A program made the position numbers and the translations under genes. Shown here piece by piece: positions 7,375 through 54,008 of a stretch of DNA of 64,000 nt (position 1 is its first letter; each line of letters begins with the position of its first letter). The stretch spans positions 39,839 through 103,838 of the forward strand of contig CAVYOJ010000002.1 in assembly GCA_963770145.1 (NCBI GenBank), read 5' to 3'. The notes below the pieces were generated by a model that did no database searches, was not told where the DNA came from, and was given only the letters and a program-made list of their open reading frames with translations. Source of the DNA: an uncultured Actinomycetota bacterium. Lineage in GTDB: Bacteria > Actinomycetota > Actinomycetes > Mycobacteriales > CADCTP01.

Positions 7375-8129
7375 GTGCAGGGCGCATCCGATGCCGCCCG
7401 GGTGCAGCTGTGCGGGACGTTCGTCGTGGAGCTGGCCGGCCGGCGGGTCAACCAGGCGCTGCCCGGGCGGCAGGGCCGGCTGCTGTTCGCCTACCTGACG
7501 CTGAGCCGCCTGCAGCCGGTCCCCCGCGACGTCCTCGTCGACGCGCTGTGGGGTGAGTCGCCGCCGCCGGCCGCCGCCGTCGGCGCTGACCGTGCTGGTC
7601 TCCAAGGTCCGCGCCGCGGTCGGGCCGGACGTGCTGCGCGGCCGGACCGAGCTGGCCGTCGCGCTGCCCGAGCCCGCGTACGTCGACGTGGAGGACGCGT
7701 TCGGCGCCCTGCACGCGGCCGAGTCGGCGCTGGCCCGGCAGGACTGGCGGAAGGCCTGGGCCCCGGCGCTGACCGCGCAGTTCGTGACCCGGCGGCGGTT
7801 CCTGCCCGAGGCCGACGCAGCCCTGGGCCGACCCGTGGCGGCGCCGGCTGGCCGACGTGCACGTCCGCGCGCTGGAGTGCTACGCGACCGCCTGCCTGCG
7901 CCTCGGCGGCGGCGAGCTGCCCGGGGCCGAGCGGGCGGCCCGGGAGCTGCTCGAGGTCGCGCCGCTGCGGGAGACCGGGCACCTGCTGCTGATGGAGTCG
8001 CTGGCCGCCCGGGGCAACGTCGCCGAGGCGCTGGCCGCGTACGAGCGGCTGCGGGTGCTGCTGCGCGAGTCGCTCGGCGTCGACCCGGGCCGGGCCGTCC
8101 AGGACACGTACGCGCAGCTGCTGGGCTGA
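7375..8129 (+). pseudogene. small SARP-family regulator (OmpR-type wHTH + BTAD), two +1 frame breaks
   Basis: VQLCGTFVVELAGRRV..GRQGRLLFAYLTLSR..PRDVLVDALWGE (ORF 7375-). Then LTVLVSKVRAAVGPDVL (7553 frame). Then BTAD end LMESLAARGNVAEALAAYERLRVLLRESLGVDPG (7857-8129). Confidence 0.8.
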
Positions 8130-8148
8130 CCGGGTCGCGCTGACCTGG

Positions 8149-8191
8149 CCGACAACGTTCCGACAACGTGCGGCCAACCCGCCGACAAGGA
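8149..8191 (+). promoter_or_regulatory. four direct repeats at exact 11-bp phasing (CCGACAACGT x2 perfect, 2 degenerate): candidate SARP box
   Basis: Repeat starts are at 8149, 8160, 8171 and 8182. The array lies 20 bp after the SARP stop and about 50 bp upstream of the methyltransferase ATG at 8240. Confidence 0.45.
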
Positions 8192-8239
8192 CCGATGCGC
8201 AGGCTTCCGGCATCGACCCGAACCCATCGGAGGGATGAC

Positions 8240-9263
8240 ATGGAAGACCAGCTCACGATCCTGCTCGGCCGCTTCGTGCAGGACCTCGGCGCGACGGTGT
8301 CCGCCGGCAACGTGCTGATCGGCGACGAGCTCGGGCTCTACCGGGCGCTGGCCGAGGCCGGCCCGTTCACCGCGGCCGAGCTGGCCGCCTACACCGGCAC
8401 CGCCGAGCGGTACGTCCGCGAGTGGCTGCCCGGCCAGGCCGCCGGCGGCTACGTCAGCTACGACACCGGCACCGACCGGTACTGGCTGAACGAGGCGCAG
8501 GCGGTCGCCTTCGCCGACCCGGGCGGCATGCTGCTGCCCGGCGCGTACCAGCTCGCGCTGGCCTGCCTGGCCGACCGGCAGATGATCGTCGAGGCGTTCC
8601 GCACCGGGCAGGGCGTCGCCTGGGGCGCGCACGACGAGAACGTGTTCACCGGCTGCGAGCGCTTCTACCGGCCCGGCTACGTCCAGAACCTGGTCAGCGC
8701 CTGGATCCCGGCCGTGCCCGGGCTGGCCGACCGGCTCACCGCCGGCATCGCGGTGGCCGACGTCGGCTGCGGGCTCGGCGCGTCGACCAGGATCATCGCC
8801 GAGACCTACCCGGCCTCGTCGGTGCGCGGGTTCGACTCGCACCCGGAGTCGATCGAGCTGGCCCGGGCCGGCGGCGGTCGACGCCGACGTGGCCAGGGCC
8901 CAGGACTTCCCCGGCACCGGGTACGGCCTGGTGGCCACGTTCGACTGCCTGCACGACATGGGCGACCCGGTCGGCGCCGCCCGGCACATCCGCGACGCGC
9001 TCGCCGACGACGGGATCTGGCTGATCGTCGAGCCGTACGCGGGCGGCACGGTCGCGGAGAACCTCACCCCGGTCGGCCGGGTCTACTACAACTTCTCCAC
9101 GTTCCTGTGCGTGCCGCACGCGATCTCCGAGGGCGCCGCGGACGCGCTCGGCAACCAGGCCGGCGAGGCGCCGATCGGCAAGATCGTCTCGGAGGCCGGG
9201 TTCGGCACGTTCCGGCGAGTGGCGGAGACCCCCTTCAACCTGGTGTACGAGGCCCGGCCGTGA
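8240..9263 (+). pseudogene. class I SAM-dependent methyltransferase with N-terminal winged-helix domain, one +1 frame break (about 8870)
   Basis: VADVGCGLGAS (SAM motif I) in ORF 8168-10018. The C-terminal part GLVATFDCLHDMGDP..DGIWLIVEP is in ORF 8889-9263. Confidence 0.8.
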
Positions 9264-10018
9264 CCGATGGCCCGCGGTCGTACGAGCGGTATCTCGTGCC
9301 GGAGTTCTTCGTCCCGTGCGCCGAGCAGCTGGTGCGGCTGGCCGCGCCGGTGGCCGGCGAGCGGGCGGTGGACCTGGCCTGCGGCACCGGCGTGGTCGCC
9401 CGCCGGCTCGCCGACCGCGGGCTGTCGGTGACCGGGGTGGACCTGGCCGACGCGATGGTGGCCTTCGCGGCGGCGGCCGAGCCGCGGGTCGACTGGCGGG
9501 TGGCCGCGGCCGGCGCGCTGCCGCTCGGCGACGGGACGGTCGACCTGGTCTGCTGCCAGCAGGGGTTGCAGTTCTTCCCCGATCCGGCCGACGCGCTGCG
9601 CGACGTGCATCGCGTGCTCGCGCCGGGCGGCCGGCTGGCGCTGGCGGTCTGGCGCGGGATCGAGCACCACCCGGCCTGGGCGGCGTTCGTCGACGCCCTG
9701 GATCACTGGGCCGGACCGGAGGCGGGCGCCGTGATGCGGCGCCCGCTGTCCGGGCCGGACCGGGACGGGCTGCGGCGGTTGCTGACGGACGCCGGCTTCA
9801 CCCGCGTACGGATTCGGATCGCCACCGTGCTGCCGCGCTTCCCTTCGGCGCGGGAGTTCCTGCGGCAGGAGACGGCCGGCAGCCCGCTGGCCGGCGTGCT
9901 GGACCCGGCGCTGGTCGACCGGCTCGGCGAGCAGCTCGAACGCGACCTGTCCCCGTACACGGACGATGACGGGGTCGTGCTGCCGATGCAGACCTGGCTC
10001 GCCACCGCCTGCCGCTGA
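9260..10018 (+). CDS. class I SAM-dependent methyltransferase
   Basis: GTGA overlap with the upstream gene. AVDLACGTGVVARRL motif I, VDLVCCQQGLQFFPD, LAPGGRLALAVW. Intact. Confidence 0.8.
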   Translation: MTDGPRSYERYLVPEFFVPCAEQLVRLAAPVAGERAVDLACGTGVVARRLADRGLSVTGVDLADAMVAFAAAAEPRVDWRVAAAGALPLGDGTVDLVCCQQGLQFFPDPADALRDVHRVLAPGGRLALAVWRGIEHHPAWAAFVDALDHWAGPEAGAVMRRPLSGPDRDGLRRLLTDAGFTRVRIRIATVLPRFPSAREFLRQETAGSPLAGVLDPALVDRLGEQLERDLSPYTDDDGVVLPMQTWLATACR

Positions 10019-10099
10019 GGCCGGGTACGTCGAACTGCGTACGGACAGGGTCGATCCCGGGCGGATGTGCCGGCAGGGACCGGCGGCGAGGCTTTCGGC

Positions 10100-10643
10100 A
10101 TGACAACCGCGACGCAGACCCGCCGACCCCGGCCGGCCCGGCGAGCGCCGTTCCGGCTGCGCGGGCGCACCCGTAAGACCATCCTGATCCTGCACATCCT
10201 CTCCGTCGGCACCTGGGTCGGCGTGGACGTGATCGTCGCCGTCCTGGTGCTGACCGGCTGGCTGAGCAGCGACGCCGTCGGTGCGCGGGCTGGCCTACCA
10301 GGCGCTCGGCACGTTCGTCGTCTGGCCGATGCTCGTCTCCGCCCTGGTCAGCCTGGTGACCGGGGTGCTGCTCGGCCTGGGCAGCAAGTACGGCCTGGTC
10401 CGCTACTGGTGGGTGGCGGTCAAGCTGGCGCTCAACCTCGTGCTCTGCACGCTGATCCTGATCGCGCTGCAGCCTGGGCTCGGCGAGGTCGCCCAGTACG
10501 GCCGGGACCTGGCCGCCGGGACGGCGACCGAGCGGGACATGTCCGACCTGTTCTTCCCGCCGATCGTGTCGCTGTCCGCGCTGACGTTCGCGACGATCCT
10601 GTCGGTCGCGAAGCCGTGGGGTCGGCTGCGCAAGCGCGGTTGA
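10100..10643 (+). pseudogene. 4-TM membrane protein (DUF2269-like), one +1 frame break (about 10280)
   Basis: The N-terminal part with ILILHILSVGTWVGVDV is in ORF 10067-. The remainder LAYQALGTFVVWP..YWWVAVKLALNLVL is in ORF 10281-10643. Confidence 0.6.
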
Positions 10644-10772
10644 TCCTCCTCGTGCCTGCCTCGGCGTCGGTGACGCCGGGGTAAAGGCGCGCTTATGGCG
10701 CGGTGGCCGCGCGGATGCCAGGATCAGGCGTCCCGGTCCCGATAGTGCCTCAGTGTGGAGGTGCCGGCGTTG

Positions 10773-12296
10773 ATGCGACGTGCAGGGTGGAAGCGCCCGC
10801 TCGGAGTCCTGCTCGGTCTGCTGGTGCTGGTGCTCGGCCTGCCGGCCGCGGCCCAGGCGCAGCCAGGGCCGTCCCATCCGCGGCCCCGGCCGCCGGTCGA
10901 GGACCCGGCGCCGACCGGCCCGGACTGCACGACCACCCCGTCGAGCACCCAGGCCGGCTACTCGGTGGCCGACCCGCGCTGCGTGTTCAACGGCGCCGCG
11001 TACACCGGGGCGCGGTTCGTGCCGCAGACCAACGCGGCCGGGCACCCGATCTCGCGGACGTTCACCGGGATCGTGGCCGGCGCGCCGTACCGGATCGAGG
11101 TGCCGAAGCAGCACTGGAACGGCCAGCTGGTGCTGTTCGCGCACGGCTTCCGCGGCAACGGCACGACGGTGTGGGTGGACGACTCGCCGCTGCGGACCTA
11201 CCTCGTCGCGCACGGGTTCGCCTGGGCCGCGTCCGGCTACTCGACCAACGGCTACGACGTCGGTCAGGGCGTGCTCGACTCGCACGCGCTGATCGGCCTG
11301 TTCGCCGGCAAGGTCCGCACCGCGCGCAGCGTCTACATGACCGGCGTGTCGATGGGCGGGCACATCACCGCGGTCGAGATCGAGCACTTCCGCGGCGACT
11401 TCGTCGGCGCGATGCCGGCCTGCGGCGTGCTCGGCGACACCGAGCTGTTCGACTACTTCACCGACGCGAACGTGACCGCGGCCGCGCTGACCGGGACGGC
11501 GATCCAGTTCCCGATGACGCTGGAGGCCGGCCAGGCGTACGCGCCGACGTACGACGCGCAGGTGCTGTCCGAGCTGCCGACGCTCGGCACCGGCTTCGTC
11601 ACCGGCAACCCGGCGAACGTGTCGCTGACGCCGACCGGGCAGACCTGGGCGAGCACGGTGGAGCTGCGCAGCGGCGGCATCCGGCCGGGCTTCGCCAGCG
11701 GGTTCGCGTTCTGGGCGAGCGCCGGCTTCGCGCCGCTGACCAACGTGCCGTTCCTGTTCGGCGTCTACCCCGGGCTGACCGGCGGCACGATCGGGATCGC
11801 GGACGGCAACGTGGTCGACAACCGGTTCACGCTCTACCGGATCGGCGACAACCGCGGCCCGCTGACCGCGGCCGAGATCGCGCTGAACCGGTCGGTGCTG
11901 CGGGTCGCGGCGACGACGCCGCCGTCGCGCGGGCTGACCGGCATCCCGAAGGTCGTCGGCGACCCGCACATCCCGGTGCTGTCCATGCACGACCTCGGCG
12001 ACCTGTTCGTGCCGTTCAAGATGGAGCAGATCTACGCGCAGCGGGTGGCCGCGCACGGGCAGAGCCGGCTGTTCGTCAGCCGGGCGATCCGCGGCGTCGG
12101 GCACTGCGACTTCACCCAGGCCGAGTTCGAGCGCGGCTTCGCCGACCTGGTCAGCTGGGTGCGCACCGGGCACCGGCCGGCCGGCGACCGGGTGACCGAC
12201 GCGCGCGTGGTCGCCTCGCCGACGTTCGGCTGCAAGTTCACCGACCCGACGCCGGGGGCGCACCCCGGTTTCGTCGCCCCGGCCTGCCCGTCCTGA
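10773..12296 (+). CDS. secreted alpha/beta-fold hydrolase
   Basis: Signal peptide LGVLLGLLVLVLGLPAAAQAQ. Nucleophile elbow GVSMGG. Intact about 507 aa. The start is chosen at the ATG at 10773; GTG at 10755 is also possible. Confidence 0.7.
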   Translation: MRRAGWKRPLGVLLGLLVLVLGLPAAAQAQPGPSHPRPRPPVEDPAPTGPDCTTTPSSTQAGYSVADPRCVFNGAAYTGARFVPQTNAAGHPISRTFTGIVAGAPYRIEVPKQHWNGQLVLFAHGFRGNGTTVWVDDSPLRTYLVAHGFAWAASGYSTNGYDVGQGVLDSHALIGLFAGKVRTARSVYMTGVSMGGHITAVEIEHFRGDFVGAMPACGVLGDTELFDYFTDANVTAAALTGTAIQFPMTLEAGQAYAPTYDAQVLSELPTLGTGFVTGNPANVSLTPTGQTWASTVELRSGGIRPGFASGFAFWASAGFAPLTNVPFLFGVYPGLTGGTIGIADGNVVDNRFTLYRIGDNRGPLTAAEIALNRSVLRVAATTPPSRGLTGIPKVVGDPHIPVLSMHDLGDLFVPFKMEQIYAQRVAAHGQSRLFVSRAIRGVGHCDFTQAEFERGFADLVSWVRTGHRPAGDRVTDARVVASPTFGCKFTDPTPGAHPGFVAPACPS

Positions 12297-12317
12297 AGTC
12301 CCCGCCGGGCGTCGATC

Positions 12318-12370
12318 CCGGCCGGCGTCGTTCGTAGCCATGCTGAGAGGCTGGCACCGACGCCGGCCGG
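12318..12370. terminator. perfect 13-bp GC-rich inverted repeat (ccggccggcgtcg / cgacgccggccgg) with 27-nt spacer
   Basis: Arms at 12318-12330 and 12358-12370, between the hydrolase stop (12296) and the next start (12389). No T-tract. Confidence 0.35.
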
Positions 12371-12388
12371 CGACCTCGTGGAGGACAC

Positions 12389-13154
12389 ATGACCGAGCCC
12401 CGGACCCAGGGCTACGTCGACGTCAACGGCGTGCACATGTACTACGAGGTGTACGGCGAGGGCTCGCCGCTCGTGCTGCTGCACGGCGGGATCATGACGA
12501 TCGACCTCAACTTCGCCTCGCTGATCCCCCCGCTCGCGACCCGGCACACGGTCATCGCCGTGGAGATGCAGGGGCACGGCCGCACCGCCGACACCGGCCG
12601 TGCCGATCACCCCGGCCGCGCTCGCCTCGGACGTCGTCGGCCTGCTCGACCACCTCGGCATCGAGCGTGCGCACGTGCTCGGCCACAGCCTCGGCGGCGC
12701 GGTCGCGCTGGAGCTCGCGGTGAGCCACCCGGACCGGGTGCGCTCGGTCGTGCCGATGTCGATCAGCGTGCGGCCGGACGGCACCCACGAGGAGATCACC
12801 GACCCGACCAAGCAGGCGACCTCCACCCGGATGCCGACGCCGCAGGACTTCGCCGAGATGACCGAGGCGTACAAGCGGCTCTCGCCGCACCCGGAGCACT
12901 TCGACGACTTCCTGGCCATGCTGTCCGGCGTCGCGTCCCAGCTGGAGGGCTGGTCGGACGCGCAGCTGGCCGGGGTCGCCGCGCCGACGATGCTGATGAT
13001 CGGCGACAACGACTTCACCACGGTCGAGCACGGCGCGCTGATGCTCCGGCTCATCCCCGGCTCGCAGCTGGCCGTCCTGCCCGGCACCACCCACATGACC
13101 ATCACCCGCCGCGCCGACCTGGTCCTGCCCATCCTCGCCGGCTTCCTCGACTGA
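12389..13154 (+). pseudogene. alpha/beta hydrolase, one +1 frame break (about 12600)
   Basis: PLVLLHGG..MQGHGRTAD is in ORF 12389-. The nucleophile elbow GHSLGG and the C-terminal LPGTTHM are in ORF 12600-13154. Confidence 0.8.
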
Positions 13155-13253
13155 CGTCGGCCTCGTCCGCCGCGACCCGGACTCAGGCGCAGCCGGAGCA
13201 GGCTCGCCGCGGTCGGCACGCCGGCCCCGGCCGTCAGTGACCGGGCGGCGACG

Positions 13254-13688
13254 TCAGGGCGCCGGTCGGGCCTCGGGTGTGTCGTCGAGCTGCGCGCGGG
13301 CCTGGTCGGCGGCGGCGCGGGTCTGCTCGGCGAGGGCGCGGCCCTTGAGGTCGCCGGCGTAGACGGCGGCGCCGAGCAGCACCGCGGTCACCGCCGACGG
13401 GACCCGCAGCCGGTCGGCGGCCGCGGTCAGCAGGGCGGTGGCGCCGACCCAGCCGGCCGTGCCGACGGCGTCGGCGGCGAGCTGCTTGGCCGGCGGGAAC
13501 TGCTTGCCCTCGCCCGGCGTGATGCCGATGACCATGATCCCCGGCCGGCCGAACCGGCGCGCGGCCACGTCGGTGGCCAGCACCACCGCGAGCCGCGCCG
13601 GCCACCGCCCGGGCATCCCGGCCGGCAGGGCTGCCGCCACCGCCGGCCCCGCGGCGCGGAGGGCGGGCCCGGGGGACAACGGGATCAT
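13254..13688 (-). CDS. hypothetical protein (Ala/Gly-rich, hydrophobic)
   Basis: 144-aa ORF with near-saturated GC3. No recognisable family. Confidence 0.5.
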   Translation of the reverse strand: MIPLSPGPALRAAGPAVAAALPAGMPGRWPARLAVVLATDVAARRFGRPGIMVIGITPGEGKQFPPAKQLAADAVGTAGWVGATALLTAAADRLRVPSAVTAVLLGAAVYAGDLKGRALAEQTRAAADQARAQLDDTPEARPAP

Positions 13689-13697
13689 GCCGGCAGC

Positions 13698-14510
13698 CTA
13701 GCGATCAAGTCCGGCGGATCGGACCAAAGCTGGGCCAGACTTCGCTACGGCCGGGTGCGGGCCAACTCGGCCGTCGACGGAGTGGTCGCGACCCGGCGCC
13801 GGCGGCGTATCCCGGTCCTCGTCCGGCCGCCCGCCGGACAGCGGCAGCGCGAGGAAGGCGATCGCCAGCAGCGCGAGGCCGAGCAGGAAGCTGGTGGCGG
13901 TGTCGGTCGGGTAGTGCATGCCGCGGTACATCCGGCAGCTCGCGACCATGATCGGGATCAGCACGCCGACCACGACGACCAGCCAGCGCAGCCAGACGTG
14001 CCGGGTGTGCCAGGCGATGATCAGCGCCGTGCCGACGTAGTACGCCGTGGCCGCGGCGGTGTGCCCGGACGGGAAGCTCGAGGTCGGCGGCGAGTCGTCG
14101 AGGTGGCGCACCGGCGGCCGCTCGCGGTCGATGAGCATCGTGGTGACCAGGAAGATCACCGCCTGGCCGGTGACGCAGATCGCCAGGATCACCGACTCCC
14201 GCCAGCGGTGGAACACCAGCCGGAACACGACCACGGTGATCGCGGTCAGCCCGATGATCGTCGGCGTCTCGCCGAACAGCGTGCCGATGTGCGTGAGCGT
14301 CTCGCCGGTCGGCGTGCGCTGCTTCTCCAGCCACTTGTCCAGGCCGGCGTCCGCGTCGGCGAACGCGGTCGTCTCCAGCACCCTCGTGATCAGCAGCCCG
14401 AGCAGGACCACGACCACCCCGACAGCGAACCACCAGGGCACGAACCGCTTCCCGGCCGTACCCAGCTCCTGCCAGACCGTCCGCTCGCCCGCCGGCTTCG
14501 TGATGCTCAC
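13698..14510 (-). CDS. PAP2-family phosphatase (membrane)
   Basis: PAP2 motifs RERPP...PSGH...SRMYRGMHYPTD. GTG start at 14510 chosen just before the first TM helix. Confidence 0.8.
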   Translation of the reverse strand: MSITKPAGERTVWQELGTAGKRFVPWWFAVGVVVVLLGLLITRVLETTAFADADAGLDKWLEKQRTPTGETLTHIGTLFGETPTIIGLTAITVVVFRLVFHRWRESVILAICVTGQAVIFLVTTMLIDRERPPVRHLDDSPPTSSFPSGHTAAATAYYVGTALIIAWHTRHVWLRWLVVVVGVLIPIMVASCRMYRGMHYPTDTATSFLLGLALLAIAFLALPLSGGRPDEDRDTPPAPGRDHSVDGRVGPHPAVAKSGPALVRSAGLDR

Positions 14511-14560
14511 GCCCCGCTGGTACCCAATGGCGGCCGGTGTCACGCTCCTAGGCTGACCCG

Positions 14561-14855: not shown

Positions 14856-15419
14856 TCAGGTCGGGTTGGGGAAGTCGAAGCCGCCGGGGCGGTCGTTGCG
14901 GTCGGCGAGCAGGCCGGCCAGCGCGGACAGGGCGATCTCCGGCGGCGTGCGGGAGCCGATGTTCAGGCCGATCGGCCGGTGCACCCGGTCGACGTCGGCG
15001 GCCGGTACGCCGAGCGCGGCCAGCGCCTCGATGTGCGGACCCTTGTGCCGGGCGTTGCCCATCACGCCGACCCAGCGGGGCGTGCCGACCAGCACGTCCC
15101 GCAGCACCGGCCCGAGCTCGTCCCGGTGGTGGTCGGTGACGACGACGTCGGCGTCCGGGTGCAGCACGACCGGGTCGGCGTCGTTGACCACCACGTCGGC
15201 CAGCTGCCGGTCGGCGTCGGTCACCTTGTCCGGCACCGGCTCGTAGAGCACGGTCCGGAAGCCGGTCGCCCGGGCGAAATGCATGAGGTTGCGGGCCACC
15301 GGCGAGGAGAACACCGCGACCAGGGTGCGGCCGTCGACCGGGGCCGGGGCGTCGCCGTGGGCGATCGCGTCCGCCGACGGGACCTCGCTGTGCGCGACCG
15401 TGCAGGCCGGATCCTCCAT
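14856..15419 (-). CDS. XdhC-family protein (Rossmann-domain only)
   Basis: RWVGVMGNARHKGPHIEALAALG...VHRPIGLNIGSRTPPEIALSALAGLL is typical of the XdhC/CoxI C-terminal domain. ATG at 15419. Confidence 0.75.
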   Translation of the reverse strand: MEDPACTVAHSEVPSADAIAHGDAPAPVDGRTLVAVFSSPVARNLMHFARATGFRTVLYEPVPDKVTDADRQLADVVVNDADPVVLHPDADVVVTDHHRDELGPVLRDVLVGTPRWVGVMGNARHKGPHIEALAALGVPAADVDRVHRPIGLNIGSRTPPEIALSALAGLLADRNDRPGGFDFPNPT

Positions 15420-15436
15420 GCCGCCAGTCTGCCAAC

Positions 15437-16102
15437 TCAGAGCAGCGAGAGCACGTGCTCCAGCCCGCGCGGCCCGGTCGGTGCCGGCGCCGGCAGCAGG
15501 AACGCGTACAGCCCGGCGGTCACCGCCCCGGAGTCGGTGAGCGGGTTGTCGCCGACCATGAGGGCCCGCTCCGGCCGGACGCCGAGCCGGTCGCACGCGG
15601 CCCGGAAGACCGACGCGGCCGGCTTGCACACGCCGTGCTCGTACGACATGAACACCGCGTCGAGATGCGGCATGAGGCCCAGCCGTTCCAGCGCCGGCCG
15701 CAGGTCGAACCCGGTGTCGCTGACCACGGCGACCCGCAGCCCGCGCGACCGTACGGCCTCCAGCGTGGGCAGGGCGTCCGGGAACGCCTCCCAGGACTCG
15801 GCCGCGACGGTCCGCTCGTACAGCCGGTCGCTGAGGCCGGGCGCCAGCTCCTCGCAGCCGGCCGCGGCGTAGAGCTCGGTCCACACCGCACGGTGCCGCT
15901 CGGTGGACAGGTCCCGGCCCTTCGCCAGCTCCTCGGCGGTGCTACCGCGGTCGAGCACCCGTTGCCAGACCCGGCTGGCCGCGCCGGGGTCCAGCGACGA
16001 GCCCAGCGTGGCCGCCGCTTCGTGCAGCAACTCCGTGCCGCTGCCGGTCAGCCGGATCAGCGTGTCCCCCGCGTCGAACAGGACCGCCTCGAACCGACCC
16101 AT
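15437..16102 (-). CDS. HAD-superfamily hydrolase/phosphatase
   Basis: Motif I VLFDAGDTL, motif II VVSDT, CKP, motif IV MVGDNPLTD. Intact 221 aa. Confidence 0.8.
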   Translation of the reverse strand: MGRFEAVLFDAGDTLIRLTGSGTELLHEAAATLGSSLDPGAASRVWQRVLDRGSTAEELAKGRDLSTERHRAVWTELYAAAGCEELAPGLSDRLYERTVAAESWEAFPDALPTLEAVRSRGLRVAVVSDTGFDLRPALERLGLMPHLDAVFMSYEHGVCKPAASVFRAACDRLGVRPERALMVGDNPLTDSGAVTAGLYAFLLPAPAPTGPRGLEHVLSLL

Positions 16103-16114
16103 GCACCGGCCCCC

Positions 16115-16794
16115 TCACTGCGCGCTGCCCGCGGTGGCGCCACAGCCAGCCCACGTCGCGGCCGAAGGACTCGACCAGCAGCGCCAGCGCGAGCACCACG
16201 AGGGCGACGGCGACGGGCCGCGGCAGCAGGCCGGACGCCGCGACCACGAGCACGACGCCCTCGGTCGCCGCAACGACCTTGCGCCAGTATCGCGGCGGGA
16301 GCTCGGCCCGCATCCAGGGCACTACCCACCCGGCGGCCATGAACGCATACCGCATCAGGCCGATGGCCAGCACCCAGCCGCCGAGCGAGCCGGCGACGTA
16401 CCCGCTGAGCACGAGGATGAGGAACGCGTCCGCCTCCATGTCGAAGCGCGCCCCGAGCTCGGAGACCGTGCCGGTGCGGCGGGCGACCCAGCCGTCGACC
16501 GCGTCCAGCGCGAGCGCCACCGCGGCCAGCGGGACCAGCGCGGCGACCGGCTCCGGCCGCAGCACCGACTCGGCCACCAACGCGGTGACGCCGCCGACCA
16601 GCGTCGCCCGGACCAGCGTCACCTGGTCAGCCGGACCGAGCCGGGACCGGCGCAGCAGCACCAGCACGCACCAGCCCGTACCCGACCCCGGCGAGCCAGC
16701 CGGCCCAGCCGAGGCCGACGGTGGTCGCGAGGATCGCGAGGACCACCAGCTGGCCGACGAACCCGACCACCGCTTCCGTACGAACCGTCGGCAC
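16115..16794 (-). pseudogene. CDP-alcohol phosphatidyltransferase, one clear +1 frame break (about 16690) and probably a second near the 3' end
   Basis: Signature DAVDGWVARRTGTVSELGARFDMEADAF (DGx2ARx8Gx3Dx3D). GGAGG-N5-GTG start at 16794. As written the frame runs on to 15942 across the HAD gene. The out-of-frame TGA at 16115-16117 sits 12 nt upstream of the HAD ATG, next to GAGGGGG. Confidence 0.75.
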
Positions 16795-16873
16795 TCCGCC
16801 TCCGTCACGTTGGGTGTCCGCGCCGCTCACTACGGGACCGGCTACCGTTCGGTTCGGGCACGGAAGGGGACCG

Positions 16874-17842
16874 ATGGCGGGCGAGGCCGGTGCGTTCTGG
16901 CTGCGCGAGCCGGGGACGGGCGAGATCCGGACGGTCCCGCTGCCCGATCCCGGTCCCGGCGAGGTGCGGGTCACGACCCGGTTCTCCGGGGTCAGCCGGG
17001 GCACCGAGACCCTCGTCTTCCGCGGCGAGGTCCCGCCGGACCAGTACGCGACCATGCGCGCGCCGTTCCAGGAGGGCGAGTTTCCCGCCCCGGTGAAGTA
17101 CGGCTATCTCAGCGTCGGCGAGGTGACGGCCGGACCGGTCGAGCTGCTCGGGCGGACCGTGTTCTGCCTCTACCCGCACCAGACCGCGTACGTGGTGCCG
17201 GCCGAGGCCGTGCTGCCGGTGCCGGCCGGGGTGCCGGCCGAGCGGGCCGTGCTGGCCGGCACGGTGGAGACCGCGGTCAACGCGCTCTGGGACGCCCGGC
17301 CGCGGATCGGCGACCGGGTCACCGTGGTCGGAGCGGGCATGGTCGGGTGCTGCGTGGCCGCGCTGCTGGCCCGGTTCCCCGGCGTGGATCTCCAGCTGGT
17401 CGACGCCGATCCGGGCAAGCAGGCGGTGGCGACGGCACTCGGCGTCCCGTTCGCCGCGCCGGCCGACGCCGCCGCCGGGCGGGATCTCGTCGTGCACGCC
17501 AGCGCCAGCGGGCCCGGACTGCAGCGGTCGCTTGATCTGCTGGCGCCGGAGGGCACCGTGCTCGAGCTCAGCTGGTACGGAGGCCACCGGGTAGAGCTTG
17601 CCCTCGGCGGTGCGTTCCACTCCGGCCGGCTGGCGATCCGCAGCAGCCAGGTCGGCACCGTCGCCCGGCCGGACCGGACCTACCGGGATCGGCTGGGGCT
17701 CGCCCTCGACCTGCTGCGGGACCCGCGGTTCGACGCGCTGATCACCGGGCGGTCGGCGTTCGCCGAGCTGCCGTCCGTACTGGCCGGGCTGGCGTCCGGC
17801 GACATCCCTGCGCTCTGCCACCTCGTGACCTATGGAGAGTGA
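16874..17842 (+). CDS. MDR-superfamily (zinc-type alcohol dehydrogenase-like) oxidoreductase
   Basis: GroES-like N-terminal domain and Rossmann [14 protein letters not shown]. The usual catalytic Cys/His region reads [10 protein letters not shown], so the Cys is not conserved. Intact. Confidence 0.75.
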
Positions 17843-18246
17843 CCACTGTGTTCAGCGTGACCGTCCGCGACCACGTCATGATCGCGCACAGCTTCCGCGG
17901 CGAGGTCTTCGGCCCGGCCCAGCGGCTGCACGGCGCCACCTACGTGGTCGACGCGACGTTCCGGCGGCCGGAGCTGGACGCGGACGGCCTGGTCGTCGAC
18001 ATCGGCGCGGCCACCGCCGAGCTCGGCGCGGTGCTGGGCGAGCTGAACTACCGCAACCTCGACGAGGAGCCGGCGTTCGCCGGCCGGAACACCTCCACCG
18101 AGCTGCTGGCGCGGGTCGTCGCCGACCGGCTGGCCGAGCGGGCGCGGGCCGGCGCGCTCGGCGAGTCCGCGCGCGGGCTGACCGGTATCACGGTCACCCT
18201 GCACGAGTCGCACGTCGCCTGGGCCTCCTACGAGCGGGAGCTATGA
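17839..18246 (+). CDS. 6-pyruvoyl-tetrahydropterin synthase/QueD-like protein with degenerate active site
   Basis: GTGA overlap with the upstream gene. T-fold-like VMIAHSF...[10 protein letters not shown]...LNYRNLD...LHESH, aligned by eye to QueD FEAAHRL..CGRLHGHSF..LDHHYLN..KET. Confidence 0.65.
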
Positions 18247-19217
18247 CTGCTCTGTACGCGGTGCTGCCCAACGACATCGACGATGCGGCGACCCCGAGCG
18301 GAGGCAACCGGTACGACCGGCGGGTGCTGACCGGGCTGGCCGCGCTGGGCTGGTCGGTGCGCGAGATCGCCGTGCCGGGTGCCTGGCCGACCCCGACCGA
18401 CCGCGAGCTGGCCGGGCTGGCCGCCGCGCTGGCGCCGGTTCCCGACGGCGGGATCGTGCTCGTCGACGGGCTGGTCGGGTCGGCCGCCGCCGAGGTGCTG
18501 GTGCCGGCGGCGGCGCGGCTGCGGCTGGTGCTGCTCGTCCACCTGCCGCTGGACACGCCGGGCGAGGCGGCGGTGCTGGCCGCGGCCCGCGCGGTGGTCA
18601 CGACCAGCCCGTGCACCCGGCTGCCGGTGCCGGCGCAGGTGGCCACGCCCGGGGTCGACCCGGCCCCGCTGGCCACGCCGTCGCCGGCCGGCGACCGGCT
18701 GCTCTGCGTCGCCGCGGTCGCCGCGCACAAGGGCCAGGACCGGCTCAGCGCCGCGCTCGCCGCCGTACCCGAGCCGTTCACCTGCACGTACGTGGGCTCG
18801 CTGACCCGCGAGCCGGACTTCGTGGCGGCCCTGCGACGGCGGCTCGACCCGCGGATCCGGCTGGCCGGCGTGCTGGCCGGACCCGACCTGGCCGCCGCGT
18901 ACGGCCGGGCCGACCTGCTGGTCTCCGCGTCCCGCGGGGAGACGTACGGGATGGTCGCGACCGAGGCGCTCGCCCGCGGGATCCCGGTGCTGGCGGTGCG
19001 GGTCGGCGGCCTGCCGGTCGCGGTCGGCCACGCCCCGGACGGCACCGTGCCCGGCCTGCTGGTCGAGCCGGACGAGCTGGCGGGTGCGGTGCGGCGCTGG
19101 CTCACCGACGCCGATCTGCGCGAGCGGCTGCGCCGGTCGGCCCGGGGCCGGCGGGAGACGCTGGCCGGCTGGGACGTCACCGCCCGGACCGTGTCCGACG
19201 TGCTGGCGGCGGCATGA
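18243..19217 (+). CDS. GT4-family (GT-B) glycosyltransferase
   Basis: ATGA overlap with the upstream gene. E-x7-E motif [22 protein letters not shown]. Intact 324 aa. Confidence 0.8.
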
Positions 19218-20045
19218 CCACCTTCGCCGACTGGCTGGCGCTGCGCGAGCCGGCCGACGCGGCCGCGCGCTCGGCCGAGCTGGCCGACCGGCTCGCGCTG
19301 CGACCGCCGCTGCTGGTGCACGACCTGGGCAGCGGCACCGGCTCGATGCTCCGCTGGCTGGCGCCCCGGCTGCCGACGCCGCAGCACTGGGTGCTGCACG
19401 ACCGGGACGCCGACCTGCTGGCGCTCGCCGTCCGGGCGCTGCCGCCCGGGGTCGGCGCCGAGACCCGGGTCGGCGACCTGACCCGGCTCACCGCCGCCGA
19501 CCTCGCCGGCGCCTCGCTGGTCACCTGCTCGGCGCTGCTGGACATGCTCACCGCGGCCGAGATCGAGGGGCTGGTCGCGGCCTGCGCCGGCCGGCCGGCG
19601 CTGCTCACGCTGACCGTGGTCGGCGCGGTCAGGCTCGATCCGCCGCACCCGCTGGACGCCGCGGTGGCCGCCGCCTTCGACGCCCACCAACGCCGTACGG
19701 TCGGCGGCCGGACGCTGGCCGGTCCGGACGCCGCCGACCTCGCGGTGACTGCGTTCGGTAACCGTGGGATCGCCGTGGAGGTCCGGGAAACGCCCTGGCG
19801 ACTGGGCCCGGAACCGCTCTCGCGGGCCTGGTTCGAGGGCTGGATCGGCGCCGCGCTGGAGCAGGAGCCGGACCTGTCCGCGCAGCTCAGCGGGTACGTT
19901 CGCCAGTCGGTTGGAGCAGCTGCGCGGCGGCCGGTTGACGGTGTCCGTCGGGCATCGGGACCTGTATGCACCCGGACCCGCTGAACCCCGCCCACGGTTG
20001 CGCCGTGCTTCCCCCCGTAAGTGCCGTCCGAGGGGAGACCGATGA
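19214..20045 (+). pseudogene. SAM-dependent methyltransferase, one +1 frame break (about 19905)
   Basis: ATGA overlap with GT4. Motif I LVHDLGSGTGSM. The tail RLEQLRGGRLTVSVGHRDL is in the 19764-20045 frame, which ends in an ATGA overlap with the next gene. Confidence 0.7.
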
Positions 20046-21109
20046 CAAGCGCACCGGTGCTGCCGCGCCAGGCAGCTCCTCCGCCGCCGCGGGAGCACGA
20101 TCGACCGCACGGTGCGCGGACGGTCTGGGCCTGGGTGCGACCGCTCGGCGGTGTGGCGATCCTCGCCTTCCTGGTGTGGCGGGTCGGCACCGGTCCGTTC
20201 CTCGACGCGATGCACCAGATCAACGCCGGCTCGCTCGTCCTCGCGGTCGTGCTCGGGATGGTGACGACGACCGCGTCGGCCTTGCGGTGGAGCGTGATCG
20301 CGGGCGGGCTGGGACTGCGGCTCCCGCTGCGTACGGCGATCGCCGACTGCTACCGGTCGATCTTCCTCAACGCGACGCTTCCCGGCGGCGTGCTCGGCGA
20401 CGTGCACCGGGCGGTCAACCACGGCCGCGAGGTCGGTGACGTCGGCCGCGGCGTCCGGGCGGTGTTCTGGGAACGCACCGCCGGGCAGATCGTCCAGTCG
20501 ATGCTCGTCCTGGTCGTGCTGCTCACCTTCGCGTCCCCGGTGCGATCGGCGATGCCGGTCGTTGCCGTGGTCGTGCTGGCGGCGCTGGCCGTGCTGGCGC
20601 TGCTGACCGTCGTCCTGCCCCGCGGCGGCGAGTCATGGTGGGCGCGGACGCTGCGGACCGCACGGTCCGACGTCGCCGCGGGCCTGCTCGCCCGCGGCGT
20701 CTGGCCGTGGGTCGTCGTCGCCTCGGTCGTCGCGGTGGTCGGGCACGTGCTCACGTTCTTCATCGCCGCGCACGCCGCCGGCGTGCACGCCGGGCCGTCC
20801 GTGCTGGTCCCGCTCGCGCTGCTGGCGCTGGTCGTGATGACCGTGCCGCTCAACGTGGGCGGGTTCGGACCGCGGGAGGGCGTGGCCGCGTGGGCGTTCG
20901 GGGCGGCCGGGCTCACCGCCGGCCTCGGCGTCACGACGGCCGTGCTGTACGGGGCGCTGGTGCTGGTGGCCAGCCTGCCCGGGGTGGCGGTCCTGCTGAT
21001 CCGCCGGCTCCGCCCGCCCGCGGTCGACCCGGCCCCGCGCCCCGGCGGGGTGCTCGTGCCGGCAATCCCTGGTCCCGTGTCGGCTGAGACCCGCTCGCCG
21101 GTCCGCTAG
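20042..21109 (+). CDS. LPG-synthase-TM (UPF0104) family membrane protein, flippase-like
   Basis: Multi-TM protein with RWSVIAGGLGLRLPL..CYRSIFLNATLPGGVLGDVHRA, typical of the family. Intact. Confidence 0.7.
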   Translation: MTSAPVLPRQAAPPPPREHDRPHGARTVWAWVRPLGGVAILAFLVWRVGTGPFLDAMHQINAGSLVLAVVLGMVTTTASALRWSVIAGGLGLRLPLRTAIADCYRSIFLNATLPGGVLGDVHRAVNHGREVGDVGRGVRAVFWERTAGQIVQSMLVLVVLLTFASPVRSAMPVVAVVVLAALAVLALLTVVLPRGGESWWARTLRTARSDVAAGLLARGVWPWVVVASVVAVVGHVLTFFIAAHAAGVHAGPSVLVPLALLALVVMTVPLNVGGFGPREGVAAWAFGAAGLTAGLGVTTAVLYGALVLVASLPGVAVLLIRRLRPPAVDPAPRPGGVLVPAIPGPVSAETRSPVR

Positions 21110-21123
21110 GAAGGTCGCCCCCG

Positions 21124-23006
21124 TTGTCCCTCGTCACCCGCCTCCGCCGGTCCGCCGCGGTGGAGACCAGCCCCGCGGACCCGGCGGACCACCCCACCGA
21201 CGAACTCCAGCCGGTCGAGACCACCGACGAGGCGCAACCCACCACCGAGGGCGGCCCGGCCGACGACAGCGCGGCCGACAGACGCGCGCCGACAGCGCGG
21301 CGCGCCGACAGCGCGGCCGGTGACGCCGGTGCCGCCGGTGGCGAGGCAGGGGTCGGGTCGGGGAGGCGGCGAGGGCGGGTCCGCGTCGTGCTGGGCGTGG
21401 TCGTCACCGTGCTCGCCGTCGCGTTCGTGCTGTTCGGGCTCGTCGTCCCGGACGACTACGGCGACCTGCACGCCGCCTCGTTCGTCCGGATCCCGCTGGA
21501 GGCGCTGGTCGCCGTCGCGGTGCTCGTCGTGCTGCCGCGACGCCCGCGCTGGATCCTCGCCACCGTGCTCGGCGTCGCTGCTCGGCCTGCTGACGATCCT
21601 CAAGGTCGTCGACCTCGGCTTCACCGCGATCCTGGCCCGGCACTTCAACCTCGTCCTCGACTGGATCCTGCTCGGCGACGCCACCGGCGTCGTGCAGGAC
21701 TCGATCGGCACGCTCGGCGCCGTCCTCACCGTGGTCGGCGCCTGCCTGCTGGTGATCGCGATCCTCGTGCTGATGACGCTGGCGGTGCTGCGGCTGACCC
21801 GGCTGGTCGCCGCCCACCACACCGCCACGCTCGCGTACGGTCAGCGTGCTCGCGGTCGCCTGGATCGCCCTCGCGACGTTCGGCGTCCAGCTGGCCGACG
21901 GCGGGGCGGTCGCGTCCCGGGCCGACGCCTCGCTCGTCGTCAACCGGTTCCACTCGATCACGCTCGAGCCTGCACGACCAGGCCGACTTCGAGGCCGCAG
22001 GCCAAGGTCGACCCGTTCCAGAACACCCCGGGCAACCAGCTGCTCAACGGCTTGCGCGGCAAGGACGTGCTGCTCACGTTCGTGGAGAGCTACGGGCGCT
22101 ACGCGGTGGAGGACCCGAAGTTCGCCCCGCCGGTCGACGCCCAGCTGGACGCGGCGACCAAGCGGCTGGACGCGCTCGGGTTCGGCTCGCGCAGCGCGTA
22201 CCTCAGCTCGTCGACGGTCGGCGGGGCCAGCTGGCTGGCGCACTCGACGCTGCTGTCCGGGCTCTACATCGACAGCCAGCAGCGCTACCGGTCGCTGGTG
22301 GCGAGCAACCGGCTCACGCTCACCAGCGCGTTCAAGAAGGCGGGCTGGAAGACGGTCAGCGTCGAGCCGGCGATCACCGGGGCCTGGCCGGAAGGCAAGT
22401 TCTTCGGGTACGAGCAGGACTACGACGCGCGGAACCTCGGCTACAAGGGCTCCCGGTTCAGCTACGCGACGATGCCGGACCAGTACCTCTACTCGGTGTT
22501 CCACCGGAACGAGCTCGGGCCCGGGCACGCGCCGGTATTCGCGGAGATCACCACCGTCTCCAGCCACAGCCCGTGGACGCCGATCCCGAAGATGGTCGGC
22601 TGGGACCAGGTCGGCGACGGGTCGATCTTCGACAACCCGGCCAACCAGGAGGGCGGGCCGCCCGGGTCGATCCTCGGCAGCGCCGACAAGCTGCGCGCCT
22701 CGTACATCCGCTCGATCCAGTACTCGCTGGACGCGCTGGTGTCGTACGTCGAGAACTACGGCGACAAGAACCTGGTGCTGGTCTTCCTCGGCGACCACCA
22801 GCCGGCGCCGATCGTGACCGGCGCAGGGCGCGAGCCGGGACGTGCCGATCACGATCGTGGCCAAGGACCCGAAGGTGCTGGACCGGATCTCGTCCTGGAA
22901 CTGGACGCCCGGCCTGCGCCCGGCCCCGAACGCACCGGAGACCAGGATGGACACCTTCCGCAACCAGTTCATGACCACCTTCGGCCCGGCGGATCCAGCC
23001 CACTAG
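21124..23006 (+). pseudogene. membrane-anchored alkaline-phosphatase-superfamily (LtaS/sulfatase-like) transferase, five +1 frame breaks
   Basis: The pieces step through frames 1>2>0>1>2>0 (ORFs 21124-, 21320-, 21846-, then 21124, 21320 and the final frame). N-terminal TM block, then DVLLTFVESYG, STVGGASWLAHSTLLSG, TTVSSHSPW, LVFLGDHQP. Confidence 0.7.
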
Positions 23007-52812: not shown

Positions 52813-54008
52813 GTGGGCCGACTCGCGCGCACCGACGGGCTGACCGACGTCCAGGAGCAGATCCTGGCGACCGTCCACGACTTCACCGAGCGGGAGATCA
52901 TCCCGCACGCGCAGGCGCTCGAGCACGCCGACGAGTATCCGCAGGCCATCGTCGACGGGATGCGCGGAGCTCGGCCTGTTCGGCCTCACGATCCCGGAGG
53001 AGTACGGCGGGCTGGGCGAGTCCCTGCTCACCTACGCGCTGGTGGTCGAGGAGCTGGCCCGCGGCTGGATGAGCGTGTCCGGGATCGTCAACACCCACTT
53101 CATCGTCGCGTACATGCTGCTGCGGCACGGGACCGACGAGCAGAAGCAGTCGCTGCTGCCCCGGCTGGCGACCGGCGAGGTGCGCGGCGCGTTCTCGATG
53201 TCCGAGCCCGGCTGCGGCTCGGACGTCTCGGCGATCCGGACGAAGGCGGTCCGGGACGGTGAGGGCCGACTACGTGGTCGACGGCCAGAAGATGTGGCTG
53301 ACCAACGGCAGCACGGCCAACCTCGTCGCGGTGCTGGTGAAGACCGACGAGGGCGCCGAGTCGGTCTACCGGAACATGACCACGCTGCTGGTGGAGAAGC
53401 CGACCGGCTTCGGCGAGGTCGCGCCCGGGCTCACCGTGCCCGGCAAGATCGAGAAGATGGGCTACAAGGGCGTCGACACGACCGAGCTGCTGTTCGCCGG
53501 CTATCGCGTGCCGGCCGCCGCGGTGCTCGGCGGCACGCCCGGGCGCGGCTTCTACCAGATGATGGACGGGGTCGAGGTCGGCCGGGTCAACGTGGCCGCG
53601 CGCGGCTGCGGGGTCGCGCTGCGCGCGTTCGAGCTCGCGGTCCGGTACGCGCAGCAGCGGGAGACGTTCGGCAAGCGCATCGCCGACCACCAGGCCGTGC
53701 TGTTCCGGCTGGCCGACATGGCCACCAAGGTCGAGGCGGCGCACCAGATGATGGTGCGCTCCGCCCGCACCAAGGACTCCGGCCGCCGCAACGACCTCGA
53801 GGCCGGGATGGCGAAATACCTGGCCTCCGAATACTGCCGGGACGTGGTCGAGGACTCCTTCCGCATCCACGGCGGCTACGGGTTCTCGACGGAGTACGAG
53901 ATCGAGCGGCTCTACCGGGAGGCGCCCATGCTGCTCATCGGCGAGGGCACGGCCGACATCCAGCGGATGATCATCGGCCGCCGGATCCTCGAGGACTACC
54001 GGCTCTGA
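52813..54008 (+). pseudogene. acyl-CoA dehydrogenase, two +1 frame breaks (about 52960 and 53260)
   Basis: Paralogue of 26124-27284. SMSEPGCGSD, KMWLTNG, GGYGFSTEYEIERLYREAPMLLIGEGTADIQ. ORFs 52813-, 53042- and 53259-54008. Confidence 0.85.

Follow-up and report, generated by a model that had tools for sequence, protein, structure and literature searches.

What does the divergent gene locus at positions 14856-23006 of this 64,000-nucleotide stretch from an uncultured Actinomycetota bacterium (GenBank assembly GCA_963770145.1, contig CAVYOJ010000002.1, positions 39,839 to 103,838; the whole stretch is called the window below) encode, and do its genes form one unit? A first-pass annotation, made from the letters alone, had described nine genes of an uncharacterised membrane head-group or glycoconjugate pathway that would load an alcohol phosphate onto CDP-diacylglycerol. 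Our analysis identified the locus with high confidence as a lineage-specific version of an orphan cluster that is widespread in bacteria. The first-pass observation is confirmed in part, and its interpretation is upheld in part. The conserved unit is a CDP-alcohol phosphatidyltransferase gene that diverges from genes for an MDR-family oxidoreductase, a T-fold protein of the PTPS-IV subfamily, a GT4 glycosyltransferase, a methyltransferase and a flippase-like membrane protein, and this six-gene synteny was present in 76-81 of the 81 loci compared, which is beyond chance. The best model for the product is a GTP-derived, pterin-like glycoside that would be phosphatidyl-linked and exported, and we give it a probability of roughly 0.5.

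Conservation of the cluster across genomes

One genome per species was scanned, and at least 599 genomes contained a relative of the PTPS-IV protein; the best 80 were examined and, with the relative L001 added, gave the 81 loci. At the species level, at least about 600 genomes have the cluster, among them Streptomyces, Micromonospora, Pseudonocardia, Amycolatopsis and Actinomadura. The genes in the neighbourhood of the PTPS gene were distributed as follows:

MDR gene adjoining the PTPS gene: 81/81 loci
GT4 gene: 81/81 loci
Methyltransferase gene: 78/81 loci
Flippase-like (LPG_synthase_TM) gene: 78/81 loci
Divergent CDP-alcohol transferase gene: 76/81 loci
LtaS-like gene: 17/81 loci
GTP cyclohydrolase II (GCH II) gene: 72/81 loci
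Creatininase-family gene: 58/81 loci
RibD_C reductase gene: 28/81 loci

The window showed the same order as 76-81 of these loci, with the MDR gene upstream of the PTPS gene, the GT4, methyltransferase and flippase-like genes downstream, and the CDP-alcohol transferase gene divergent. Over several actinomycete orders, the distance between the last of these and the MDR start was about 80 nt in the 76 loci that have it.

The nine genes did not hold together as a conserved unit, which weakens the first-pass scheme by the criterion that it had set for itself. The HAD and XdhC_C genes of the locus and the neighbouring PAP2 gene were missing from every one of the 80 other-species loci, even with a threshold of E<=1e-3, and were rejected as core members on this ground; they were present only in the window lineage (the window, L001, L082 and L083). 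The LtaS-like gene was also an accessory one, as its count above shows.

Gene layout of the locus

The window has about 75% G+C, and genes were picked by third-position GC (GC3) and then verified with profile searches. Family calls were made with Pfam profile searches of the window proteins, and NCBIfam was used for the equivalog check. All nine family assignments proposed for the locus were confirmed by Pfam, the MDR-like protein giving weak Rossmann matches only and missing the Pfam ADH models, and the two divergent arms were as described. The features of the window were as follows:

13698-14543, minus strand: PAP2-family membrane phosphatase, just outside the nine-gene locus (Pfam PAP2, 52 bits; 87% identity to the PAP2 protein of L001)
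14856-15419, minus strand: XdhC_C-only Rossmann protein, 187 aa (Pfam XdhC_C, 86 bits; ATG start at 15419)
15437-16102, minus strand: HAD-IA hydrolase, REG-2-like, 221 aa (Pfam Hydrolase, 78 bits; GAGGGGG Shine-Dalgarno before the ATG at 16102)
15942-16794, minus strand: CDP-alcohol phosphatidyltransferase (CDP-OH_P_transf), core gene, 283 aa once corrected (Pfam, 48 bits against a cutoff of 22)
16795-16873, no strand: divergent intergenic (promoter) region of 79 nt between the CDP-alcohol transferase and MDR genes
16874-17842, plus strand: Zn-less MDR-fold NAD(P) oxidoreductase, core gene, 322 aa (AlphaFold2 and Foldseek)
17848-18246, plus strand: PTPS-IV T-fold protein, core gene, 132 aa, SCO6650 orthologue (Pfam PTPS, 84 bits)
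18243-19217, plus strand: GT4 retaining-type glycosyltransferase, core gene, 324 aa (Pfam Glycos_transf_1, 69 bits; EX7E motif, ETYGMVATE)
19214-20045, plus strand: class I S-adenosylmethionine (SAM) methyltransferase, core gene, 276 aa once corrected (Pfam Methyltransf_25)
20042-21109, plus strand: flippase-like LPG_synthase_TM membrane protein, 355 aa (Pfam, 98 bits against a cutoff of 33)
21077-21109, plus strand: GCH II relic of 33 nt, now the end of the flippase-like open reading frame (ORF)
21124-23006, plus strand: LtaS/EptA-type membrane phosphotransferase, accessory gene, 625 aa once corrected (Pfam Sulfatase)
45127-45200 and 45202-45275, plus strand: two adjacent tRNA genes, the sole Rfam matches in the window

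Four start/stop overlaps of 4 nt had been proposed to join the first five plus-strand genes. Those at 18243 and 19214 are real and place ATGA at both ends of the GT4 gene, and the 14-nt gap ahead of the TTG at 21124, where the LtaS-like gene starts, is also real. The ATGA at 20042 couples the methyltransferase gene to the flippase-like gene only after the removal of one base, since as given the methyltransferase frame from 19214 ends at 19984. The PTPS gene probably does not begin with the GTGA at 17839. The GTG at 17848 is preferred, leaving a 5-nt gap after the MDR gene; a Shine-Dalgarno sequence (GGAGA, 17833-17837) lies 10 nt upstream of it and fits it, and the crystal construct of SCO6650 begins at the MFS equivalent to this start. 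The tight coupling of the plus-strand genes was upheld, as the relatives L001, L082 and L083 carry intact genes with the same 4-nt overlaps.

On the minus strand, the 3' tail of the CDP-alcohol transferase gene reaches 160 nt into the HAD gene (15942-16102), which has its own Shine-Dalgarno sequence. This overlap is kept in the window and in L001, L082 and L083, and gene callers had shortened one or the other gene in the relatives. Motif I of the HAD protein is FDAGDTL, with the nucleophile Asp present and Gly two positions on, as in REG-2-like/dehalogenase-type subfamilies, and its best NCBIfam models (TIGR02252 and TIGR02253) both scored under their own cutoffs.

Taken literally, the nine genes would place a simple alcohol phosphate on CDP-diacylglycerol, dephosphorylate it with the HAD enzyme, glycosylate, methylate and flip it, and transfer it outside, with no link to GTP and with the XdhC_C and HAD proteins as integral parts. 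The families and the gene order agree with this scheme, as does the position of the HAD start, which falls within the transferase ORF at its 3' end, and HAD and PAP2 genes beside a CDP-alcohol transferase gene recall PgsA followed by PgpB or PgpC. The scheme is nevertheless very unlikely: the HAD, XdhC_C and PAP2 genes are confined to one lineage, GCH II is linked in most loci and has left a relic in the window, and no role is left for the PTPS-IV and MDR proteins. In our preferred reading the HAD, PAP2 and XdhC_C genes are local additions, possibly for phosphatidyl-X-phosphate phosphatases. XdhC proteins normally chaperone a pterin cofactor, and in the window, L001, L082 and L083 an XdhC_C-only protein stands beside a putative pterin-like pathway; this could be a coincidence, or the protein could be an accessory binding protein.

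The sequence CGTTCGGTTCGG was found at 16846-16857 in the 79-nt divergent region; it occurs once in the window, where chance would give 0. The region ahead of the MDR gene contains it in a Micromonospora locus (L015) as well, and a close variant, CGTTCGGTTCAG, stands ahead of the MDR gene in a Plantactinospora locus (L003). It may be an operator or leader element. Rfam searches of the cluster and of six related loci detected no riboswitch or other RNA.

Frame breaks and their correction

Three genes of the locus were frame-broken in the sequence as given, and the first-pass annotation had not reported this. Insertions were mapped by comparing the window with L001 (90% identical), and eight were mapped in all. 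The CDP-alcohol transferase gene has one +1 insertion at 16668, its N-terminus sitting in another frame; the methyltransferase gene has one at about 19899, passing from frame 2 to frame 3 at about 19895; and the LtaS-like gene is spread over three frames by five (21577, 21832, 21960, 21995 and 22822). An unrelated hydrolase gene also has a single-base insertion at 12601. Removing exactly 7 bases (1 + 1 + 5) gave intact ORFs of 283 aa for the CDP-alcohol transferase, 276 aa for the methyltransferase and 625 aa for the LtaS-like protein, with 0 internal stops, so that the operon structure is retained upon correction.

A GC3 scan revealed about 30 same-strand frame switches without a nearby stop across the whole 64 kb, six of them within the first 2.5 kb (example sites: 300-2500, 7500-9000, 12601 and 52900-53300). 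The public protein P0479, from a deposited contig of 1.02 Mb, is exactly the frameshifted product. The frame breaks are concluded to be best explained as assembly errors, because about 30 similar events occur window-wide, P0479 equals the frameshifted translation and the relatives are intact. The whole assembly is apparently rich in single-base insertions, and any gene-level reading of the window therefore needs frame correction.

Pseudogenisation specific to the cluster was dropped, as the frame switches occur window-wide. A related possibility is that the cluster copy in this genome is a decaying, non-functional remnant that has lost GCH II and had three membrane-module genes inactivated by frameshifts. 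In its favour, the deletion of GCH II is genuine and L001 and L082 show losses of the same kind, and the 7 frame breaks of the cluster are all located in the CDP-alcohol transferase, methyltransferase and LtaS-like genes. Of the 8 insertions mapped by comparison with L001, 5 lie in the LtaS-like gene, more than an even error rate would give, and this counts against assembly error. The dispersal of comparable switches through the entire window, however, speaks against decay, as do the nature of the mapped lesions, every one of which is a +1 insertion with no internal stops or deletions, the 82-92% amino-acid identity that the fragments of the broken genes keep to the relatives, and the intact genes in L001, L082 and L083. 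A remnant is accordingly held to be highly unlikely.

Orthology of the PTPS-IV protein and identity of the cluster

The PTPS-like protein matched one solved structure, PDB 3D7J ('Uncharacterized protein SCO6650' of S. coelicolor), with an E value of 2.5e-67 and 80% identity, and by sequence it is the orthologue of SCO6650. It bears FGPAQ, which has been defined as the signature of subfamily PTPS-IV, in whose neighbourhood GCH II and RibD_C have been reported (PMC5445326). A profile alignment with the rat, human and C. elegans PTPS showed that the catalytic Cys is replaced by Ala, that HGH is replaced by HGA with the loss of one Zn-binding His, and that the Asp-His pair (DH) is replaced by NY. 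The pterin-anchoring TTE of the STE/TTE motif is kept and aligned to the TTE of PTPS. The orthology to SCO6650 had been missed under the earlier PTPS/QueD-like label.

We infer that the S. coelicolor representative of the cluster is SCO6648-SCO6655; the gene order in Streptomyces loci matches these tags one for one, and SCO6655 is annotated as GCH II. In the work of Spoonamore et al. from 2006 (Bandarian laboratory), SCO6655 reportedly halts at the formylated ring-opened product since a Tyr is replaced by Met, and a structure paper of 2008 from the same laboratory is said to have found SCO6650 without Zn and without PTPS activity. A 2026 review assigns to the third S. coelicolor RibA homologue (SCO6655) a new function unrelated to flavin biosynthesis. 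No paper that assigns a product to the cluster was found in searches of the full-text literature for the family combinations, PTPS-IV and SCO6650/SCO6655, and no cluster gene had an NCBIfam equivalog above its curated cutoff, in line with the earlier statement that no characterised pathway fits. The cluster has thus been noticed before, through the studies of SCO6650 and SCO6655 and of the PTPS-IV neighbourhood (PMC5445326), without an assigned product, and it is not a categorically new discovery. The copy in the window is a new variant: the cyclohydrolase is missing, the operon ends with an LtaS-like gene, and genes for HAD, XdhC_C and PAP2 proteins are added.

Three proteins of 488-855 aa (P0127, P0141 and P0229) each contain three tandem PTPS-IV-like domains. 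The use of PTPS fusions as Rosetta stones was dropped, as reading through the ATGA overlap could account for P0248, the one fusion of PTPS to GT4, and the triple-PTPS proteins were uninformative.

GTP cyclohydrolase II: its loss in the window and its link to creatininase

The last 33 nt of the flippase-like ORF (21077-21109) hold the first 4 and the last 6 codons and the stop of a GCH II gene (VSAE joined to TRSPVR). Alignment with L083, in which an intact Tyr-type GCH II gene (11341-11958) stands between the flippase-like and LtaS-like genes, showed that the 585 bp between L083 positions 11352 and 11938 are deleted in the window. By this alignment the dedicated GCH II of the window is lost through deletion. 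In L082 the GCH II gene has an independent 288-bp in-frame internal deletion (13288-13572). Repeated loss in the lineage fits redundancy with the housekeeping RibA, which, with the dedicated cyclohydrolase deleted, would have to provide the precursor.

The position of E. coli RibA Tyr105 was occupied by a residue other than Tyr (Met, His or Leu) in 57/57 actinobacterial loci with a creatininase gene and by Tyr in all 16 loci without one, and every non-Tyr GCH II had a creatininase neighbour. Formamidases of the creatininase family that act on the formylated ring-opened intermediate have been documented (PMC9478397). A two-way rule between creatininase and non-Tyr cyclohydrolase was dropped, as it fails outside Actinomycetota.

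The same neighbours raise the possibility of an alternative supply of 5-amino-6-ribitylaminouracil, the precursor of riboflavin and F420/FO, in which PTPS-IV would fill a missing pyrimidine step. PTPS-IV has been connected with F420 synthesis (PMC5041015, citing unpublished work), the GCH II, RibD_C and creatininase genes mirror the logic of archaeal ArfA/B/C, and the neighbourhood described in PMC5445326 points the same way. Such a supply route would, however, leave the invariant GT4 and methyltransferase genes and the CDP-alcohol transferase, flippase-like and LtaS-like genes unexplained. No FO/F420 genes were noticed in the loci, though no systematic search was made for them, and the 2026 review places the function of SCO6655 outside flavin biosynthesis. 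We regard this route as improbable.

Soluble core

The AlphaFold2 model of the MDR protein (pLDDT 78) had threonine and polyol dehydrogenases as its best Foldseek matches (13-20% identity, TM-score 0.70-0.78); these are generic and give no clue to the substrate. The nucleotide site GAGMVG (GxGxxG) is invariant. Invariant SRGTE and KYGYL stand in place of the GxCGTD and GHE Zn-ligand motifs, a mapping of positions that is inferred.

Marine contigs of 24-28% G+C (L097 at 8249-14183; also L091, L098 and L099) contained a compact seven-gene version: creatininase, MDR-PTPS-GT4-methyltransferase, RibD_C and GCH II. The marine-type cyclohydrolase has 372 aa, of which about 180 aa form an unassigned N-terminal extension. 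Contigs from soil, which differ in composition, often carry LtaS-like and CDP-alcohol transferase genes in addition. Because the marine contigs carry the core alone while soil contigs often add membrane genes, the system consists of two separable parts, a soluble core and a membrane module. The usual supplier of the core is a GCH II dedicated to it, in some cases together with a creatininase-family amidohydrolase and a RibD_C reductase. The membrane module is joined to the core in Actinomycetota and in some soil bacteria of other groups; it comprises the CDP-alcohol transferase and the flippase-like protein, to which certain lineages add an LtaS-type enzyme.

Membrane module

The complete DGx2ARx8Gx3Dx3D motif attributed to the CDP-alcohol transferase was read directly as DGWVARRTGTVSELGARFDMEAD, and an N-terminal transmembrane segment was recovered after frame correction. 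Against NCBIfam models of known substrate the best scores were 17-25 bits (cutoffs 107-240), and the PgsA, PssA and PIP-synthase models gave E values of 1e-3 to 1e-5, far under their cutoffs. The protein belongs to a distinct subfamily, outside PgsA, PssA, PIP synthase and cardiolipin synthase. The flippase-like protein contains an LPG_synthase_TM domain of the MprF type.

The LtaS-like protein has a low-complexity N-terminus, about 5-6 transmembrane helices and an alkaline-phosphatase-fold domain, and a sequence search gave no PDB match. An AlphaFold2 model of its orthologue P0410 (pLDDT 79) showed a helical part (residues 2-163) and, after it, an alpha/beta domain with the alkaline-phosphatase fold, and the nearest solved folds in Foldseek were LtaP, LtaS, GacH, PbgA and MCR-1/EptC. 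The modelled architecture is that of a predicted LtaS/EptA/OpgB-type membrane phosphotransferase. E232 (VESYG), S273/T275 (SSSTVGG), H392 and D468-H469 (GDHQP) were invariant in 30 homologues and, judged by motif order and not by residue-level superposition, may correspond to LtaS E255, T300 and D475/H476.

In two natural fusions (P0480 and P0509) the same CDP-alcohol transferase subfamily is joined to an LtaS-like protein, and the separate genes are direct neighbours in loci of the Micromonospora type. The fusion loci (L084 9298-11700, L085 10001-12391 and L086 6232-8622) encode proteins of about 800 aa, divergent to a methyltransferase that is 55% identical to that of the cluster. It is the natural fusion that suggests a phospholipid as the head-group donor of the LtaS-like enzyme. 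Coupling of the core to the membrane appears strengthened by these fusions, by the fold of the LtaS-like protein and by the translational coupling of the flippase-like gene with the methyltransferase and GT4 genes. The membrane logic proposed earlier holds for the three membrane proteins and gains strength from the fusions; the lipid part is not the heart of the pathway, given the marine cores without membrane genes.

Proposed pathway

The ties to GCH II, creatininase and RibD_C and the SCO6650 orthology make the head group most likely GTP-derived and not a simple alcohol phosphate. In our model GTP would be opened to 2,5-diamino-6-ribosylamino-pyrimidinone 5'-phosphate, which the PTPS-IV and MDR proteins would convert to a pterin-like or aminopyrimidine polyol phosphate. 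The CDP-alcohol transferase would couple the polyol phosphate to diacylglycerol phosphate, the GT4 enzyme and the methyltransferase would decorate it, and the flippase-like protein would carry the lipid outward. Where present, the LtaS-like enzyme would pass the phospho-head group to an envelope acceptor. Binding of a pterin-type ligand by PTPS-IV is suggested by the kept TTE anchor, despite the lost Cys, Asp-His pair and one Zn-His.

Several findings weigh against this model. No homologue of GCH II, RibD_C or creatininase was found anywhere in the 64-kb window. Outside Actinomycetota, creatininase accompanies a canonical Tyr-type GCH II in 9/12 metagenome loci; the dependency between creatininase and non-Tyr cyclohydrolase is therefore one-directional, and a role of the creatininase as a simple formamidase partner is not general. 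The low-GC marine loci lack the CDP-alcohol transferase, flippase and LtaS-like genes, so that lipid linkage is not intrinsic and the lipid part is an add-on. The fusion loci L084-L086 have no MDR, PTPS or GT4 gene within 10 kb; as the methyltransferase and the fusion occur there alone, the two halves can work independently.

The last two groups of loci favour two separate neighbouring systems. One would be a soluble pathway, formed by GCH II, creatininase, RibD_C, MDR, PTPS-IV, GT4 and methyltransferase, whose product is a pterin-like or flavin-precursor-like glycoside without lipid linkage, and the other an independent phospholipid head-group module (methyltransferase, CDP-alcohol transferase, flippase-like and LtaS-like proteins) acting on an ordinary alcohol. 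The marine loci hold the soluble set alone, L084-L086 hold only the methyltransferase and the fusion, and GT4-family enzymes glycosylate pterin side chains in cyanobacteria (BGluT/PgtA). Against separation stand the divergent position of the CDP-alcohol transferase gene so close to the MDR start in 76/81 loci of several orders and the 4-nt overlap of the flippase-like gene with the methyltransferase stop inside the soluble-enzyme operon; linkage so persistent between genera would be unusual for unrelated functions. Two systems are possible but rather unlikely, and the lipid-linked glycoside is preferred.

A more specific form of the lipid-linked glycoside is offered tentatively and is itself doubtful. 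It would be a new class of membrane lipid with a GTP-derived pteridine or aminopyrimidine polyol head (for example dihydroneopterin-3'-phosphate-like, its side chain mimicking glycerol-3-phosphate) that is phosphatidyl-linked, glycosylated, methylated, flipped and, in some lineages, grafted onto the envelope by the LtaS-like enzyme. The MDR and PTPS-IV proteins would here replace the Amadori/ring-closure half of GTP cyclohydrolase I.

The cluster is a widespread orphan without an assigned product. The 3D7J structure and the enzymology of one member date from 2006-2008, and the purpose of SCO6650 and SCO6655 is now directly testable. The handles for comparison are the split of a soluble GTP-derived core from a membrane module, the fusion of the CDP-alcohol transferase to the LtaS-like protein, the repeated cyclohydrolase loss in one lineage, and the non-Tyr cyclohydrolase that always has a creatininase-like neighbour. 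If a lipid-linked, pterin-like glycoside is made, the main antibiotic-producing bacteria would have an envelope component of a new kind.

Comparison with known systems

Individual proteins of the locus were compared with their characterised relatives. Canonical PTPS/QueD proteins (COG0720 types I-III) share the T-fold and the Thr-Thr-Glu with the window protein, which lacks their catalytic Cys, Asp-His pair and three-His Zn site. Zn-dependent MDR alcohol/polyol dehydrogenases share the fold and GxGxxG, whereas the window MDR protein has no Zn ligands and no Cys-rich structural lobe and does not match Pfam ADH_N and ADH_zinc_N. The bifunctional Lys-phosphatidylglycerol synthase/flippase MprF shares the LPG_synthase_TM domain, while the window protein, with 355 aa, has no C-terminal aminoacyl-phosphatidylglycerol synthase domain (NF033480, 22 bits against a cutoff of 600).

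The logic of phosphatidylglycerol and lipoteichoic acid synthesis (PgsA, Pgp phosphatase, MprF-type flipping, LtaS/GacH/OpgB transfer) is matched in the CDP-alcohol transferase motif, the LPG_synthase_TM domain, the LtaS/LtaP/GacH-like fold and the adjacent HAD and PAP2 genes. It differs in the aminoacyl-phosphatidylglycerol synthase domain, which the flippase-like protein lacks, and in the head-group donor, which is probably not glycerol phosphate in the window.

The archaeal ArfA/ArfB/ArfC enzymes and the bacterial BrbF formamidase resemble the cluster in pairing a creatininase-family enzyme with a ring-opening cyclohydrolase and in the RibD_C-type reductase. The counterpart genes are missing from the window, and the non-actinobacterial cyclohydrolase is canonical (Tyr) despite its creatininase neighbour.

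By analogy, the cluster can be set beside a pathway of the tetrahydrobiopterin-glucoside type (GTP cyclohydrolase I, PTPS, sepiapterin reductase and pterin glycosyltransferase), in which the same types of enzyme follow one another: a cyclohydrolase that opens the GTP ring, then a T-fold enzyme, then an NAD(P) oxidoreductase and last a glycosyltransferase of group 1 (GT4-like). The cluster differs in that its cyclohydrolase is of type II and not I, its T-fold protein has lost the Cys, the Asp-His pair and one Zn-His, and its reductase belongs to the MDR and not the SDR family; the RibD_C, creatininase-like and membrane genes have no counterpart in that pathway.

The S. coelicolor SCO6650/SCO6655 cluster has the same order of CDP-alcohol transferase, divergent from MDR, PTPS, GT4, methyltransferase and flippase-like genes, and an 80% identical PTPS-IV protein with FGPAQ. 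In Streptomyces loci creatininase and GCH II genes follow the flippase-like gene, and the window is without both, GCH II being deleted with a relic left. The window operon closes instead with the LtaS-like gene, and the HAD, XdhC_C and PAP2 genes are placed after the CDP-alcohol transferase gene.

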